Shown: piece by piece, positions 8,422-24,547 of the stretch | Layout: each line of letters begins with the position of its first letter | Numbering within the stretch: the stretch's first letter is position 1 | Origin: Dictyostelium discoideum | Taxonomy: Eukaryota | NCBI GenBank assembly: GCA_000004695.1 | Contig: CM000153.2 | Coordinates: forward strand, 2,720,001-2,784,000 | DNA: 64,000 nucleotides | Direction: 5' to 3' | Translations under genes and position numbers: made by a program | The notes under the pieces: generated by a model | What the model saw: the letters and a program-made list of their open reading frames with translations, nothing else | What the model was told of the DNA's origin: nothing | The model's database searches: none

Positions 8422-11002
8422 CAAAAACATGAAATAAAAATAAAATAAAAGAAAATTAGAAAATAATAATTAATAATTATTCAAAATTAATATAATACAA
8501 ACATTTTCAGTTTTAAACTTTTCAACAATTTTTTTAAATTGTTGTTTTGAATGAGATTGTTGGAATTGAATATCAGAAGGTGGTAAAGTTAATAATAGTT
8601 CATCCATTTTTGTGTAGTATTCAATTAATGGTTTGAATTTGAGATCAATTAAAAAGTTTACATAGATTTCCAAATTTTCTTTAAAAATTGATTGAGAGGT
8701 ATCTTTATGTTGAGTTAGACAATTGATATTAAGTTCTTGTAATTTCAAATAAAAGAAATAATGATTCTCAAGTTTTGAAATGAATTTGTATTTTTTATCC
8801 TCTGGTAATTTCTCTACCAAACCATCCAACCAATTAAATAGCTCTAATATGATCTTCTTATAGGATGATTCAATTAAAAGAGTGCTTGAACCAGTGTCTG
8901 ATTCAGATTTATACTTTTGTAATTCTTTAACAAAGATATGAAAATTTCTAAAATGTGGTAAAACACCACATCTCTTTAAAGAGGTTTGAGTTGACTTAAT
9001 TGCATCAACTTGAACTTCTAAAAATTTGTTGAATAAAGTTTTTATACTTTTTTGTACCTCTGCCAAAATCTTTACAAAATATGAAGAATGATGAGAATCT
9101 TTACGTGAATGAGCGTCAATATATAACTCTGTTTCAAGTAACATTGTTAAAAGATAGAATGGATTAACTTGATCAGCTTTTTCAACCATATTTATTAATT
9201 CTGGTACAACTCCATTAAACATTGCACTTAATATTAAATCCAATGGTGCATCTGGTGATTCTTTAGGTGGTGGTGGTGGTGGTGGTGGTGGTGATGATTC
9301 TTCTGTTGATGATAATGAGCCATTGACTGCATTATTTGGAGATTTTGGACTATTTGAATCAATTGGTTTATCATTATCCAATGAAGGTGATGATGATGAA
9401 TCTGGATCTTTTTTTTTTTTATCTTTTTTATCTTTTTTATCTTTTTTATCTTTTTTATCTTTTTTACTTGATTTTTTATCTTTTCTATCCTTACCATCTT
9501 TATTACTACCACTACCACCACCACTACTATTTGAATGATGATTACGTTGACCAGCTAGTCTTGGTGGGTCTTGATATAAAAAGAAATCCATTACAAAATT
9601 TTGTTTTGTCATTATATAAATTTCTAAACAAGATAATGCATATTTAAATAATCTATTGATTTTACGTTTTTTAATACCATCTTTGCCACTACTACTACTA
9701 CTACTACTACTACTATTTTTAGATGGTGTACTTGTTGATGTATTGTTATTTAAACTATCAATTGATTTCTTTGATGAAGATGAAGAAGAAAAGAAATCAT
9801 TTTGATCCTTTGATTCTTTTTCTAATGACTGTTGAATAGTTGAAAAGAAAAGTTTAATATCACTTTCATAAATTCGACGAAATGCTTTAATATAAGAAAC
9901 AATCAATGGGATTAACTTTTCATGATCCATCTCTTTCAACCAATTAACCAATGGTTTAAATTTTCTTAAAAGGTCATAGTATTCCAAGTAATCTGGAAAC
10001 TTTTCTTCACCGGGTGTTTGAGATGTTGTTGTGATGACATGTTTACCAATTTCCTTATCAGTGGTTTTAAATATATTTTCAACCAATGCTGCGACCTTTC
10101 TTGCAAATGAGATTTTATAAGTTTCAAATACCTTTCTTTGATCTTTAACAGCCATCATATTATCCATACCACTCTTTAATTTGGTTGTTAATGCACGTTT
10201 TAAATCTTCAGCTGCTTCAATTGCCATCTTTAATCCCTTGGTATCGTTAAATTGTGGTGCTGTTAGTGTGGAAATTGTGTTGTCTGATAAAGTCATTAAC
10301 CCAATTAAATTATTCAATTCAGAGTATAATAACTTTTGATTTCTTGATACAATCTCCATCTTATTATTCTTTCCTTCAATATGTTCAATATATTTCTTCA
10401 TATCTTGTAATTGTTTATTATAATACTCAATCCATGCCGTCACACCTGTTAAATGTGTACCATCTTTATCACCTAATTGACTTATAACTTCATTAACTCC
10501 AACACCTGAATCTAAAACACCAACAATCATTTCCTTTAAAAAAAAAAAAAAAAAAAAAAAAAATTATTAATTATTAATTATTATAAAATAAAAATTTATT
10601 TTATTATATAATTTAACATACAGTTTCTAAAGTTGATAACGTTTTACCTAAACGTTCAGTTAAAATATCAACATCTTTTTCAAATGAGAGATAATTATTA
10701 ATAACATTTTCTAAATCTTCATCACCATCATTATTTCCCAAACTAGTTGCACTACTACTTAGAGTATTGTTTGATGGACCATTGCTTACATTATCATTCG
10801 ATTGTGATAGAAATGATGGGTACTCAAGTATTGGGATATTACTATGATGGTGATTTTCACTATCACTCTCTGAATGTGTGGTTTCTGATGGATCGTATTC
10901 ACTCTCACTATATTGACTATATCTATCACTAAATTGACCGCTATATCTATTATGTTGAATACCCACTCTACTAATACCACCTGAATATCCAAGATGATCC
11001 AT
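8155..11002 (-). CDS. Exocyst-complex-subunit-like protein (approx. 880 aa; possibly Sec3/EXOC1-like). 3-exon model join(11002..10622,10533..8503,8382..8155).
   Basis: Exon 1 (MDHLGY...LSFEKDVDILTERLGKTLSTLET) ends at a GTATGT donor. Exon 2 (E-MIVGVLDSGVGVNEV... with coiled-coil/helical-bundle segments and acidic/Ser/Lys-rich linkers) follows a TTTAAAG acceptor. After KFKTEN a weak GTTTGT donor, a roughly 120-nt intron containing a T-run of about 40 nt and an AAAAAG acceptor lead to a terminal exon IEKGLLKALGNVQKN...KNPNKH* that has no ATG of its own. The exocyst assignment rests on overall architecture and size, not on a checked alignment. Confidence 0.4.
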
Positions 11003-11378: not shown

Positions 11379-15364
<3,986 letters not shown>

Positions 15365-15506: not shown

Positions 15507-16730
15507 TTATGACAATGATAATCTATTTAAAAGTGTTAAAACTTCAGAAGAACTTTCAACAACACCTCTTGCTTTTGTTGATTCTTCAAGATCACCACAA
15601 ACACGAATTGTAAATGATGGTACATTATAAAGTGCTTTAAACATATCTTCATCAGTTTTATCATCACCAATACAAAGTATGAAATCTGCATCAATCTTTT
15701 GAAGGATCATTTTTACTATTTCACCTTTATTGATACCTATTGGTTTAACTTCAATTGCTTTCTTTCCTGATAAAATATCCAATGGGTATTTATTTGCGAC
15801 TGAACGAAGTTGTGCAATCAATTCTTTAGCTTGGAATTGACCAAAGTCTGGATCAGCATTTCTATAATGCCATGTGATATTGACTTGTTTAGTTTCTGTC
15901 ATTGAACCTGGTGTTCTATCTTCAAAATCTTGCATTATTGATAAAACTGTGTCTTTCCATTGAACTTCTGCATTTGGACTTTCAGTCCATGGTTGATTTT
16001 CACCAGGTTGTCTTGTGAAAACGCCATGTTCACAAGACATACCAATTGGTAAATGACCTAACCACTTCTCCAATGACGAACGATCTCTTCCACTGATTAC
16101 GTAAACTTCATTTCTTCTATCTTCTGTTAGTTTACTTAAAACATCAATTAATTGCTTTGATGGCATTGCTTGACTTGGAAGACGAACCAATGGTGTTAAA
16201 GTACCATCATAATCCAAAAAGAAAACTCTAACCTTTGCTTTTTTATAGGAATCTTCAATCTCTTGGAAATTGGCCCTTGGTACACTTGTTTCCATAATCT
16301 CTTTTTGTGTTGCTTCATTTAAATCACATAAGAATCTTTTACCCCAAAAACTTGATGTGTTTGCCAAAACATAATTATAATTGATTTGATGTTTTAATTT
16401 TCTATCATGCATACTCATATTCAATGCTTCAATGATAGCTTCCATTATTTCTTTCTTTGAGAATGGATTAACGATTATTGAACCACCTAAACATCTTGCT
16501 GCACCTGCAAATTCACTTAATATCAATACACCAAAGTTATCCTTTTGACATACAACATATTCATGTGAAGTTAAATTCATACCATCTCTAATTGGTGTTA
16601 TTAATGCAATATCTGCCAATTTATATAATGCTGATAATTCTTCATATGATATTTTCTTATTAATATATTCAATTGGATTAAAACTTAATTTACCAAATTT
16701 ACCATTAATTCTACCAACCATTCTATAATA

Positions 16731-16772
<42 letters not shown>

Positions 16773-17979
16773 TTAGTAATTAAAATATGAAAAAAAAAAT
16801 AAATAAATAAATAAATAAATACTCATTAACAGTTTTATGTAAAATCTTTTGTTCATCAGTTTCATCACCTTCTTCAACAGTTGGTTCATAAATTTGAATA
16901 AAAACTAATTTACCAATATATTCTGGATGATCATTTAATAATTGTTCAAAGACTTCAAGTTTTCTTGGTACACCTTCAATTTGATCTAATCTATCACGAG
17001 CTACAACAACCTTTTTACCTTTGAAAATTTTACGTAAACTTTCAACTCTTGATGAAACTTCAGGTAAATTTAAATTCTTTGCAAAATCATTATAATCAAC
17101 ACCGATTGGATAAACTTGAAGTTTAGTGAAATGAGTTGAACCATCTTCAAATATCTCTAAACCTTTTGGATGAACTTCAAGATCTAATAAACGAGCACAA
17201 GAACTTTTGAAATGACGTACATATTCAAATGATTGAAAACCAATTAAATTTGATGAAAGGATACCTTTTAATAATTCTTTTCTATTTGGAAGTATACGAA
17301 ATAGTTCATAGGAAGGAAATGGTGCATGGAAAAAGAAACCAATCGATGCCTCTGGTGGTAGCAATTGTCTTAACATTTGTGGTACCAACATAAGATGATA
17401 ATCATGAATCCAAATGATATCGGATGGTCTCCATACGGATGCGATCTTTTCGGCAAACATTTGATTTACTCCAACGTATTCTTCCCACCATTCAGATTGC
17501 ATACGAATAAAGTTCATTTGATAATGTAATAATAACCATAATCCATTTTTACAATAACCTTTGTAATAGTTTTCAAACTGTCTTGGATTTAGAAAAACAT
17601 GTTCAAAATGTGGTGAAAATTCTTTAATGGCCTGATTTAACATTGGCTCTTCATCTTCATTAACCTCACAATGTGACCAACCAATCCATAGCCAATCTTC
17701 AATTTCATCTTTTGCCTTTAAAGTTTCTAAAGCAGATTGAGTTGGAAATGGATGACCATTGATTTGAATTTGAATTTTACTTTCTCTATCTCTTGATGGT
17801 TCTGACATACCAAAACTACTTGTTATTGATTCTCTACTTGCACTTAATGGCGATCCAAATAATGGGGTTTCATTAAATTTTGTAACTGTAATTGGTAATG
17901 TATTACTTGCAACAATAATTTTACCTAATTTTTCATTAATAATATTATTTAAACTTGTTGACCTTTGAATTATGGTCAT
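15507..17979 (-). CDS. Bifunctional alpha,alpha-trehalose-phosphate synthase (GT20) / trehalose-6-phosphate phosphatase (approx. 800 aa). join(17979..16823,16722..15507).
   Basis: The N-terminal exon has GT20 motifs (WIHDYHLMLVPQMLRQ, IGFFFHAPFPSYELFRILP, DRLDQIEGVPRKL). The 100-nt intron (GTATTT...TATAG) splices to NE-MVGRINGKFGKL (compare yeast Tps1 NELVGRINGKFGT). The C-terminal half is the HAD-type TPP domain (FFLDYDGTLTP ... CIGDDKTDEDMF). Confidence 0.85.
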
Positions 17980-18238: not shown

Positions 18239-18669
18239 TGTGTTAAAAAATTTAGTTATTAAATTTAATTAATTTTTAAATTTATTTTCATTTTTTTTTT
18301 TTTAATTTTATTTTATTTTCATTTTATTTTTAATGGTTTTTTTTTTTTTTTTTTCATATTTGGAAGATCAATCAAAACTAAATTCGAATTTCTCAAATTT
18401 CAAATAATTTATTTTTTTATTTTTTTATTTTGAAAATCAAATTAAATGAATAATTAAATAAATAATTAAATAATTAAAAAATTAATTAAATAATTAAATA
18501 AATAAAGTTTTTTTTTTTTTTTTTTTAAGGTTTTGTTTTTTGATTAAATCAATTAAATAAATAATCTTCTCCTTTTTTTCATTATAATTATTTTATTTAT
18601 TTATTTTTTTTTTTTATTTTTTTTTTTTAATAATAATTTTTTTTTTTTTTTTTTTTTTTAAAAAAATAT

Positions 18670-21600
18670 TTAATAAAAATCTTGATCTAAAGCCAATTGA
18701 GAGAATAATTTTTTAGTTTGTTCTTGAGATTTTTTAAAATCTTTCCATTGATTTAAGAGAGCGATTTCATCATCAACAATATTTGATAAAGGAGTATTTG
18801 CTAAGGATTGATGATTCTTTGGAGCTTGATAATCTTGAGTGATATTTGTGATAGAGAATAACGATTTTTCATCAGGAGCCAATAGTCTAGCAATGAATTG
18901 ATCAGAGGTTGGTCTTGGTAATTTATTAATCCATTGGTCAATGATTGATTCAAAGGAAGCCAAAAGACTTGAACTTGAAGATCTAAATTCGAATCTAGCA
19001 TGGTAAACCTTATACTTTGGTAAACTTTGACCATTTGGAGAGGTATAATAGATACTGTAATCCTCTGGGAATGATAAGCATTTCTCCATACCAGAGATTG
19101 TGAAACAAAATTGTTCATTGAACCAAGTTGAAGAAGAGAATGCAAAATGGAAATTTGAATTACCAAATTCACTATTTAAAACATTATGCAATGGTAAAGC
19201 ACTTAGGCAATCAAAGATTGAAGCAACAGAAACGAAACCTTCAAATACAACATCAATTGAAAACACAGCTTCAAATCTTGGCCATTGTTGAATGAATTGA
19301 TGTTTATTATATTTAAATGGAATTAAAAATTGATTCCAATCAAAAATATAATCTGAACATCTAATTTCAATAGGTGAGAATTGAATAATATTTGCACTTG
19401 GGTTATTAGTTGTAATTGATAATGATTGAATAATTTGATTATTAATAATTGGTTGATTTATACCTGATCCAACTATACTATTTAAATTTGTATGTGAATT
19501 TGGATTTGGATTTGGATTTGTTGATGATGATGATGATGTAGTATTATTATTTGAATTTGTAGTTGATGATGGTGTTGTTGTTGAGGTTATTTGATTAGCA
19601 TTTGATGATGATGATGATGATGACGATATAATATTTTGATTAATAACATTTGATAATGGTGAAGAAGTTGTTGGTGAAGAACTTTGAGCGTTTGATAAAA
19701 GTGAAGAAGATATAAAACTAGCAGTACCAGGTGAACCAACTGCACTAGTTGAAATCGAATGACTATTTGCACTACTATTTAAACTACCACTATTATTTGA
19801 ATTTAAACTATATGATGATAAACCAGAATTAACACTTGAAATTGGTTGTGGTTGGTATTGTTGTTGTTGTGATTGTTGTGATTGTTGTTGTGATGATGAT
19901 TGTTGTTGTTGTTGTTGTTGTTGAATTGATTGAACTAATAATTGATCAGAAGATTGTTGATAATTATTAATTTTAGTATGAATATTATTTAAATTAATAT
20001 TATTTTCAGATTCACAAAGACCACTTGGTTGATTAAAAGTTAATTTAAAAGTAACTAAATTATAATCTAAACTTGAAACATTTAGAGGTACTTCGAAACT
20101 ATAAGATTTCTCTGGTAAAAGTTTTGGAATATTATGTTTACAATTGGTTTGAGGATAAGGGAAATCCAAATGACCAGATAATCCAATCATTATATTTACA
20201 TTTTTAATACTAAAATGAATGACATTTGTAACTTGAACATGTAAAGTGATGGTATTTAATGTTGGATGAGTTGTATGACTAACTTCAATCCAAACTGGAT
20301 CACTTGCACCACTAATTAAAGTCACATCTCTTGATGATTTATCACGAATTGATGAACCATAATGCACACCAACCAAACCAGTGATTGCTTTCTTACATTC
20401 GTATGCAAAAATATCGGAAATCGAGTGAAGTGAATTCGAGGCCTCCAACTGTTCAATTGGGATACAATATGAGAAATCGATGGTATAATTGGTAAAGCTA
20501 TTTAAATTTCTAATTGTACTATATTTTCCAAGTGATTGTGCATCCAATGCACTACTGGTACTTGAGAATAACATTCTACGAATGAAACGTGCACGTGAAT
20601 AAACCGATTTATTATGAGGATAAGTTGCCAATATCTCCTCGAGTGTACGTTGAACCGTTGCTTCAACCGATGGAATATGTAACCCCATTAGATAAAGACA
20701 CTCCAAAGCACCCAACCAATAGCCACTTAATGAGTGAAGTGATGCAGGTGATACTCTACCAAATTGCGATACACCCATAATCATATCCCTAATGTTACCA
20801 TTGTATTGAGTGAACTTTGGTTGATTATCCAAGAAAAGGAAACGACGTCTTAATAAACTAATTAATAAACCTGCATCTGATTGTTCATAAACTTTATTTG
20901 TTGGTGATCTTAATAAATGTGTACAAATTAAGAATACTGCTTGTAGGCAAATATAATCTGATGGTATCTTATTAATTTGATCTAATAAATCACTACGTAA
21001 TAATGATATTAATTTTATACCATATTGTGATTCACTACCATTACCACTATTATTGCTGCTGCTGCTGCTTGATAAAGTTACTCTACATAACCAATCAACA
21101 AATCTAATACAATATTCAATTGCTGAAATTCTTTCACTTTGCCATGTAATACATTTCAAACAAACCTCTGAAATATTTAATGCAGCTTGATGTAAATAAA
21201 ATAAATTACCAGATGTTGAGAATTTAACTGAACCACCACTACCACCACCACTATTGCCACTGCTGCTATTGTTATTGTTTGAATTTTTCTCTGATTCAAT
21301 TTCAATATATTTTGAAAGAATATTATGATGACTTGCAACCATTGATACGATTATTTCTTCACGGAAACTACTAGATTCATCTTGAAAAGCCATTAAAAGA
21401 CAATCGGTTGTCATTAATGGTGTAAATAATGAACTTTTACCAGAGGATGTAACATGTCTATCAATTATTAATTCAAAGGTACGAATTAAATAACTAACAC
21501 GTTGATTTGAATCTGTTATGGATTTTATTGATGGGAAAATACGACTAAGTGTACAAAATAATAAATCATCACCCAACATTGGTAAAACACTCATAATCGC

Positions 21601-21981
21601 CAATAGAATAGGTAGTGGATTTAATGATACACCTTCTCTACGTAACAGACCAATGAATGCAGTTAACACTGGATTAATCCAATTTTCATTATGTTGATTT
21701 TGTTGAGTTAATAATAGATCCAATATTGCTTTACCAACTGCAAATACCAATGAATCATTTGATGAATCTAATTGTGATAAAAAGTATTCAACCAATATTG
21801 ATACAATATTTTGTGGTGATGAAATTTGTTTAGTTTTATTTGATGATGCTGTATTTGCTATTATTGATGTTGGTGATGTTGGTGATGTTATTGGTGAATT
21901 ACCTGTTGTCGTAGTTGTTGTAGTTGTACCTGTAATTGATGATAAATTCATTGATGATATACCATTTATTAAATTATTTTG

Positions 21982-22071
<90 letters not shown>

Positions 22072-22984
22072 TTGTTGATTATTATTATTATTATTATTAT
22101 TATCAAAACTTGTTGGCCAAAATGGTGTACCACTTGATCTTGAAATTGTATCAACTAAATAAGTTAAAGTATTTACAGTTGAATGACGTTGATTAATATC
22201 AATATGTTGAGCACGATTAAGTAATAGATCGAAATGATCAATTAATTTCAAAGAGATCCAATCGGCATAATAAGAGAGTACTTGTCTCTTTTGTACACTA
22301 TTATCCAATTCATCAGAATGTGAAACTGATCTTGAGATCTCAGAGAATAATGAACTGATTGCACTAAAACTTGATTGGTAAACCATTGGTATTGGTTCCT
22401 CTAAAATTCTATCAACTATTAACTCCCAACCTGTCGATACAAATGATTTATATGATTGAAGAATTGATTTTCTATAAAATAATAAACTTGTCAATGTATC
22501 CAATGCTGTTTTTCTAACTGATGGATTACCATGTCTAACCAATGGTCCAAAATCTGCATTTCCCATCATTAATAACTCTGTAAATATTGATGAAATGTGT
22601 GGTAATGTCTTTAAAATACTAATCACAACTTCATTATCATCGGAATTTAAATCTTTTACTAATAATGGTATTGCTAAACTCCAATCTGATGGTGTACATT
22701 TACAACTTTTTAAAATACTATAACATAATATTCTTGTTGTTTTATTATCAGTTTCTGATATTAACTAAAAAAGTAAAAAAATAATATTAATATTAATATT
22801 TAATATAATTTGTATTATTAAATTTTAAAAAAAAAAAAAAAAAAAAACTTACTTTAATAATTGAAGTAAAAAATAAAGTTGGATCTCTTCCTTGATTAAT
22901 CCAAAACTGATTTAATTTTGACAAACCATTAATTTGTTTTAATGAATCACTACTATTTAATTCATCATAAATTTCAATCTCCAT
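18670..22984 (-). CDS. TPLATE-like protein, a putative subunit of the TSET/TPLATE membrane-trafficking complex (approx. 1400 aa). join(22984..22853,22764..18670).
   Basis: Exon 1 (MEIEIYDELNSSDSLKQINGLSKLNQFWINQGRDPTLFFTSIIK) ends at a GTAAGT donor, then an 88-nt intron and a TTTTAG acceptor. The N-terminus resembles the plant TPLATE N-terminus. The appendage region GASDPVWIEVSHTTHPTLNTITLHVQVTNVIHFSIKNVNIMIGLSGHL aligns convincingly with Arabidopsis TPLATE GSSDPCYIEAYHLADTNDGRVTLHLKIINLTELELNRVDIRVGLSGAL. The protein also contains long poly-N/Q/S/T low-complexity inserts. Confidence 0.7.
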
Positions 22985-23035: not shown

Positions 23036-23081
<46 letters not shown>

Positions 23082-23089
23082 CCTTAAGG

Positions 23090-23123
<34 letters not shown>

Positions 23124-23511: not shown

Positions 23512-24547
<1,036 letters not shown>

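Follow-up and report, generated by a model that had tools for sequence, protein, structure and literature searches.

A low-complexity-rich locus of Dictyostelium discoideum matches the published TPLATE gene and carries insertions at two permissive sites

Which protein is encoded on the minus strand at positions 18670..22984 of the DNA studied here, and do its low-complexity tracts really belong to that protein? The whole stretch, called the window below, comprises 64,000 nucleotides of Dictyostelium discoideum DNA (assembly GCA_000004695.1, contig CM000153.2, positions 2,720,001 to 2,784,000, forward strand), has a G+C (GC) content of about 12–33% per kilobase and encodes proteins with long poly-N tracts. 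An initial annotation, made from the letters alone, had proposed a homologue of TPLATE, a subunit of the TSET complex, with large low-complexity insertions. We found that the locus is, almost beyond doubt, the published D. discoideum TPLATE gene, whose product is the beta-adaptin-like large subunit of TSET. TSET is an ancient membrane-trafficking coat, an AP/COPI-like heterotetramer of TPLATE, TSAUCER, TCUP and TSPOON, and its core associates with two beta-propeller/solenoid proteins, TTRAY1 and TTRAY2. Our own results bear on the gene structure, on the agreement with the published protein, on family and appendage fold, and on where the insertions lie and how they vary, while complex membership and cell biology are taken from the literature.

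The gene has two exons and yields a product of 1408 residues without an internal stop. In their supplementary tables, Hirst et al. 2014 (eLife 3:e02866, PMC4031984) give D. discoideum TPLATE as XP_639969.1, with the same length of 1408 residues. We compared the window protein with the DdisTPLATE rows of the supplementary alignments in that paper, covering about residues 1–615 and 700–1050 with the middle and C-terminal parts as excerpts, and the two agreed in every stretch compared. The agreement takes in the exon junction, the tract FDN8-QQI-N29-QNN, the GASDPVWIEVSHTTHPTLN...TITLHVQVTNVIHFSIKNVNIMIG segment and the motif of the beta-sandwich lobe described below, and within these parts no difference from XP_639969.1 was detected. 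In a homologue search, the proteins nearest to the gene product were those of D. discoideum and D. firmibasis. The gene and its assignment to the TPLATE family were published in 2014, as was the presence of its product in purified TSET, so that no new kind or member of the complex is added here. The initial annotation had said that the locus confirms the presence of TSET; it was right that the gene is TPLATE, but this adds nothing, as Dictyostelium TSET was found and biochemically characterised in 2014. What the locus offers is little beyond quality control, in that a distant TPLATE homologue and its gene model were correctly recognised from raw sequence.

The family assignment was also examined by direct comparison with plant TPLATE. 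Arabidopsis TPLATE (NP_186827.2, hereafter AtTPLATE), rebuilt from the supplementary alignment of Hirst et al. to exactly its stated 1176 residues, gave four collinear BLASTP segments with the window protein, at 23–27% identity and E values from 1e-8 to 2e-4:

Window protein 861–944 against AtTPLATE 772–855: the best segment, holding the motif picked out by the initial annotation, 27% identity over 84 residues, pairwise E 1e-8.
Window protein 1175–1258 against AtTPLATE 900–998: platform, 25% identity, E 3e-6.
Window protein 4–102 against AtTPLATE 7–108: N-terminus, 26% identity, E 3e-5.
Window protein 363–606 against AtTPLATE 300–539: mid-trunk, 23% identity, E 2e-4.

On these alignments the homology to AtTPLATE is genuine and full-length, with each segment modest. 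It had been claimed that the alignment of the appendage is strong; the aligned motif GASDPVWIEVSHT...ITLHVQVTNVIHFSIKNVNIMIGLSGHL does lie in the best segment, at residues 863–914, but the similarity there is modest, and the TPLATE-like N-terminus claimed in the same place is borne out by the third segment. In a comparison of profiles by hhalign, a dictyostelid profile and a plant/algal TPLATE profile of six sequences aligned end to end over 923 columns, starting at profile column 8, with 99.9% probability and E 2.4e-36.

An exhaustive HMMER hmmsearch of a five-sequence dictyostelid profile against 1.84 billion cluster representatives retrieved no more than 58 proteins at E<=1e-3. Among these are a Selaginella protein annotated "Protein TPLATE" (P0017, E 9e-32), with 61% identity to AtTPLATE along its full length, an Anaeramoeba protein annotated "tset complex member tsta" (P0013), and proteins from Balamuthia, Vermistella, Closterium, Chlorokybus and Prasinococcus. 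AtTPLATE was matched by BLASTP as well with 40 of the 57 non-dictyostelid proteins. When Pfam was run on 57 of the retrieved proteins and the Acytostelium orthologue, we obtained weak Adaptin_N matches in six members and weak Coatamer_beta_C matches in five; none of them looked like a genuine AP-beta or beta-COP by Pfam, and no strong AP/COPI domain was found among them. Word-indexed homologue searches, whether started from the full protein, from the protein with low-complexity sequence masked or from a 14-sequence diverse TPLATE alignment, gave the same nine dictyostelid proteins among the matches listed. They did not reach plants because of low-complexity words and a limit of 8000 candidates, and the exhaustive HMMER search was needed for this. 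Searching PDB sequences with the single protein gave just poly-N/poly-Q artefacts (e.g. Nup43 and TBP), and the family profile had no match at E<=1 in the PDB, although sequences of AP2 and COPI subunits are present there.

The architecture, an alpha-solenoid trunk followed by an appendage of a sandwich and a platform lobe, is that of TPLATE. Its parts are as follows:

21700..22963, minus strand: N-terminal alpha-solenoid trunk, residues 8–399, Pfam Adaptin_N (PF01602), E 2.5e-11, 43.3 bits against a gathering threshold of 37, spanning the intron and the first insertion.
20032..20322, minus strand: beta-sandwich lobe of the appendage, residues about 859–955, with the motif GASDPVWIEVSHT...GLSGHL, the BLASTP match to AtTPLATE 772–855, confident modelling of residues 859–949 and matches to adaptor/COPI ear folds.
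18850..19392, minus strand: platform lobe of the appendage, residues about 1169–1349.
18691..18783, minus strand: predicted C-terminal helix, residues about 1372–1402, with a conserved hydrophobic-x-x-W motif (LLNQWKD).

Besides Adaptin_N, Pfam gave a weak Coatamer_beta_C match at residues 812–950 (E 1e-3, 19.4 bits, below the cut-off of 25 bits) and no match to a platform domain, a beta2-ear or alpha-adaptin-C2 anywhere in the protein. We modelled residues 780–1408 by AlphaFold. With a 9-sequence alignment the mean predicted local distance difference test (pLDDT) score was 41.6 and the model was unusable, while 45 TPLATE-family sequences gave a good model in the folded lobes. Two blocks were confident, an all-beta one at 859–949 (pLDDT above 90) and an alpha/beta one at 1169–1349 (mostly above 90), whereas residues 999–1161 had pLDDT below 50. 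The two blocks thus correspond to the two lobes, sandwich and platform, that make up a canonical adaptor ear, and they are predicted to pack together in the model while the sequence between them loops out. A fold search with the appendage matched the ears of AP2 alpha, AP2 beta2 and gamma-COP.

Nothing of substance weighs against identifying the locus with the published gene, and the points to be noted are small. The exact 1408-residue sequence was not found in a collection of 15 billion proteins, though XP_639969.1 appears identical to it; since this look-up returned no entry, the match to XP_639969.1 leans on the shared length of 1408 residues and on those stretches of the published rows that are named above. 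The 88-nucleotide intron has a predicted position, placed from sequence. The gene name is probably tstA, going by the transferred annotation on the Anaeramoeba homologue, and this symbol gave no literature match when combined with Dictyostelium. Finally, the modelled appendage would be recognised by fold as an adaptor ear in general, without separating TPLATE from alpha, beta or gamma ears, because no solved TPLATE structure was found in the PDB; the sequence evidence is what makes this separation.

Could the protein instead be a divergent paralogue of beta-COP or of an AP beta-adaptin? Pfam gives only generic or related models for it, Adaptin_N and the weak Coatamer_beta_C, and the appendage model resembles the ears of AP2 alpha, AP2 beta2 and gamma-COP. 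A beta-COP, however, is expected to score above gathering with both Coatamer_beta_C and Coatomer_b_Cpla and strongly with Adaptin_N, and here Coatamer_beta_C stayed below its cut-off and Adaptin_N reached 43 bits; likewise a detectable sequence similarity in both trunk and ear, as expected of an AP beta-adaptin, was not seen, and only the fold is common. With beta-COP, gamma-COP and AP2 alpha and beta2 in general the protein shares the fold and marginal sequence similarity, and these belong to complexes different from TSET; in the model, the lobes of Dictyostelium TPLATE would also differ from theirs in being split in the sequence by a disordered linker of 220 residues. D. discoideum moreover has its own beta-COP (XP_638375.1, 912 residues) and AP beta subunits, as listed in the table of Hirst et al. 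Discrimination between TPLATE and AP/COPI subunits was made by hmmsearch, Pfam and the PDB profile search, together with the profile-profile score against the TPLATE profile, and on all of these the paralogue was rejected. The initial annotation had named a better match to a different adaptor large subunit as the result that would overturn it; such a match therefore does not occur, and we consider a paralogue of this kind extremely improbable. The other large subunit of TSET, TSAUCER (TASH3-like), has to be considered as well, since both TPLATE and TSAUCER are alpha-solenoid large subunits with weak similarity to Adaptin_N. D. discoideum TSAUCER is nevertheless a separate protein (XP_640471.1, 877 residues), and 1408 residues is the length given by Hirst et al. 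for TPLATE; the retrieved family includes the Selaginella TPLATE, and the protein can be aligned with AtTPLATE in the sandwich-platform appendage. TSAUCER was rejected on these accessions and lengths, the Selaginella match and the appendage alignment, and there is hardly any chance that the gene encodes it.

The exon structure of the TPLATE gene is as follows:

22853..22984, minus strand: exon 1, with the ATG at 22984..22982 and 44 codons, MEIEIYDELNSSDSLKQINGLSKLNQFWINQGRDPTLFFTSIIK; its N-terminus is kept in dictyostelid orthologues and matches the compared part of the published DdisTPLATE row.
22765..22852, minus strand: intron of 88 nucleotides, phase 0, GTAAGT...TTTTAG, GC 0.06, with flanking residues ...SIIK and LISE... 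that are contiguous in orthologues and in the compared part of the published protein.
18670..22764, minus strand: exon 2, residues 45–1408 and a TAA stop at 18672..18670, with the C-terminal end ...LALDQDFY kept in orthologues.

The sequence across the junction (...FFTSIIK/LISETDNK...) is uninterrupted in the DdisTPLATE row where compared and in the five dictyostelid orthologues whose N-terminus is complete. Both ends of the protein, MEIEIYDE... and ...LALDQDFY, are conserved among dictyostelid orthologues, and the stop codon is confirmed because all nine orthologues finish in Q(D/E)FY. The conservation of the junction and of both termini therefore means that the coordinates 18670–22984 and the intron boundaries 22852/22765 given by the initial annotation were exactly right, in agreement with the open reading frame and the splice signals. 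Homopolymer runs flank the gene, namely an 81-nucleotide poly-T on the plus strand at 23037–23117 (poly-A on the gene strand), about 50 nucleotides upstream of the ATG, and a T-rich run of about 70 nucleotides at 18588–18659 directly past the stop codon; such runs are typical Dictyostelium intergenic DNA.

How does a protein of this family come to be 1408 residues long? Low-complexity segments were found at about residues 257–353, 528–566, 605–625 and 960–1165, and the tracts delimited there are the following:

21862..22110, minus strand: first insertion, a trunk loop, residues 263–345, N8-QQI-N29-Q-NN followed by T8 and S/T/P-rich sequence, with an (AAT)n array at 21973..22103.
21238..21294, minus strand: minor low-complexity tract, residues 535–553, NSNNNNSSSGNSGGGSGGS, in a region whose length varies among dictyostelids.
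21031..21075, minus strand: minor low-complexity tract, residues 608–622, SSSSSSNNSGNGSES.
19393..20031, minus strand: second insertion, the linker between sandwich and platform, residues about 956–1168, a CAA-encoded Q-rich stretch followed by a long S/T/N/P-rich one.

Insertion lengths were taken from a multiple alignment that included TPLATE sequences from dictyostelids, amoebozoans, Anaeramoeba, plants and algae:

Trunk loop after ...FWPTS (262–346): 84 residues in D. discoideum, 0–9 in nine of ten aligned relatives, 136 in Closterium.
Sandwich-platform linker (955–1175): 220 residues in D. discoideum, 14–37 outside dictyostelids, 23 in Acytostelium, 115 in Cavenderia, 146 in Polysphondylium violaceum.

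The two sites account for most of the extra 300 or so residues, and the expansion to about 1400 residues stated by the initial annotation is accordingly correct. The trunk-loop insertion is missing in other dictyostelid genera, D. purpureum, plants and amoebae, and a shorter version of it occurs in D. firmibasis as well as in another D. discoideum isolate; in the published alignment, the D. purpureum row lacks the poly-N loop and has a long linker. A Closterium sp. protein (P0023) carries an independent, unrelated insertion of 136 residues at the very same trunk-loop site (residues 262–346 of the window protein), which marks this loop as insertion-tolerant in TPLATE. All 39 N codons of the poly-N tract are AAT. 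The poly-N(37) of the initial annotation is right as a sum of 8 and 29, but it consists of two runs, the longest pure one being 29; the poly-Q and S/T-rich tracts it mentioned are both present, the Q-rich stretch being CAA throughout and including a run of Q8.

The tracts could in principle be unrecognised AT-rich introns or read-through, with a real protein of about 1100 residues, since they are AT-rich simple repeats and relatives such as Acytostelium (1090 residues) do not have them. Against the background of a genome with about 22% GC, however, the open frame of exon 2 is unbroken over 4092 nucleotides. The tracts keep the reading frame, their GC is 0.16–0.27 compared with 0.06–0.09 in the intron and intergenic DNA, and no GTAAGT donor was found within exon 2; the tracts are therefore coding. 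The length differences between isolates and between species are likewise all in frame, and the mass-spectrometry identification of Hirst et al. 2014 used the 1408-residue model. Hidden introns were thus rejected on the open frame, the GC, the absence of a donor and the in-frame length changes, and we regard them as very unlikely. Coding poly-N and poly-Q tracts that arise by in-frame repeat expansion are a well-known general trait of D. discoideum proteins.

Another possibility concerns function, namely that the linker and the trunk loop are prion-like disordered modules that would support a multivalent, condensate-type assembly of TSET at the plasma membrane. The plant TPLATE complex (TPC) has AtEH/Pan1 subunits, which Dictyostelium TSET does not have, and the abstract of PMC7615741 describes the disordered AtEH subunits as the drivers of condensation in plants; also, long S/T/N/Q-rich sequence occurs at the linker site in several dictyostelid genera (23–220 residues). 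If this were true, the disordered linker and the poly-N loop would functionally replace AtEH/Pan1 in Dictyostelium TSET. When we compared the window protein with that of the other D. discoideum isolate (P0001, 1391 residues), however, all 39 indel columns and 34 of the 39 substitutions fell inside low-complexity tracts and just five substitutions outside them, showing that the repeat tracts are length-polymorphic within the species. The trunk-loop insertion is absent from D. purpureum and other genera as described above, the Acytostelium linker has just 23 residues, the (AAT)n/(CAA)n composition and codon usage are those of generic Dictyostelium repeat expansion, and no sequence conservation was seen within the tracts. 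Because of the length polymorphism within the species and the absence of tracts in close relatives, we think a condensate-forming role quite unlikely. The pattern seen is what would be expected if trinucleotide repeats had expanded neutrally in surface-permissive loops, and we infer that both insertions are disordered loops, selectively neutral and lacking a specific function. The extra residues would then be in-frame expansions of (AAT)n, (CAA)n and S/T codons at two surface-permissive sites, and most likely they would loop out as disordered segments and leave the fold unaltered. Modest additions to what was known are thus a residue-level map of the two permissive sites, the polymorphism of the tracts within the species and the family-wide terminal helix considered next.

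AtTPLATE and Dictyostelium TPLATE share collinear homology from the N-terminus to the platform lobe, and both have the trunk and the sandwich-platform appendage. They differ in the two loops, the trunk loop having 1 residue and the inter-lobe linker 34 in AtTPLATE compared with 84 and 220 in Dictyostelium, and in the C-terminal region, where AtTPLATE has an acidic and lysine-rich "anchor" of about 115 residues between the platform and the terminal helix and Dictyostelium has a short tail. The acidic/lysine-rich block was seen in the Arabidopsis sequence only and not in dictyostelids, and this charged anchor of about 115 residues defines the plant form of TPLATE, not the whole family. A hydrophobic-x-x-W followed by basic residues (LLNQWKD) lies at 18727–18759 on the minus strand (residues about 1380–1390), a few residues from the C-terminus. 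The terminal helix with this motif was found in most TPLATE-family sequences aligned there, including those of Arabidopsis (VLQEWHI), Selaginella (VLQEWNL) and Balamuthia (VQSRWRQ). The conservation of this helix from amoebae to plants suggests, on alignment, an ancestral origin for part of the "plant-specific" anchor, and the motif may serve in binding a partner.

With regard to function, Hirst et al. 2014 (PMC4031984) reported that XP_639969.1 was recovered with TSPOON-GFP by co-immunoprecipitation, in an amount roughly equimolar to the other subunits, and assigned it as the beta-like subunit of TSET. In the same work TSPOON-GFP formed puncta on the plasma membrane, and the TSPOON knockout grew and developed normally while the internalisation of FM1-43-labelled membrane was slower. 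Dictyostelium TSET moves on and off the plasma membrane, and its share in the internalisation of membrane is small; the complex is essential in Arabidopsis and dispensable in Dictyostelium. In plants the trunk of TPLATE is enough to bind the medium subunit, TML. The two appendage lobes, sandwich and platform, act there as a hub for assembly, and all subunit interactions are lost when this hub is mutated. The ear of Dictyostelium TPLATE would presumably act as an assembly hub in the same way.

Three membrane-trafficking genes lie within 15 kilobases, since TPLATE is accompanied by an exocyst Sec3 homologue at 8470–10530 on the minus strand (Sec3_CC and Sec3_C-term) and a syndetin/Vps54-like gene at 11379–15364 on the plus strand (Vps54_N and Syndetin_C), which is split over several open reading frames. 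This clustering is probably a coincidence. Directly downstream of TPLATE, at 15507–17979 on the minus strand, is a trehalose-6-phosphate synthase/phosphatase fusion (Glyco_transf_20 and Trehalose_PPase), made of two open reading frames with an apparent short intron at about 16722–16779. The upstream neighbour, at 23512–24492 on the minus strand, is apparently a small gene in at least two open-reading-frame pieces, one of which ends in a long poly-N run, while the other is S/T-rich with a C-terminal zinc-ribbon-like CxxC...CxxC (weak Pfam Zn_Ribbon_1).

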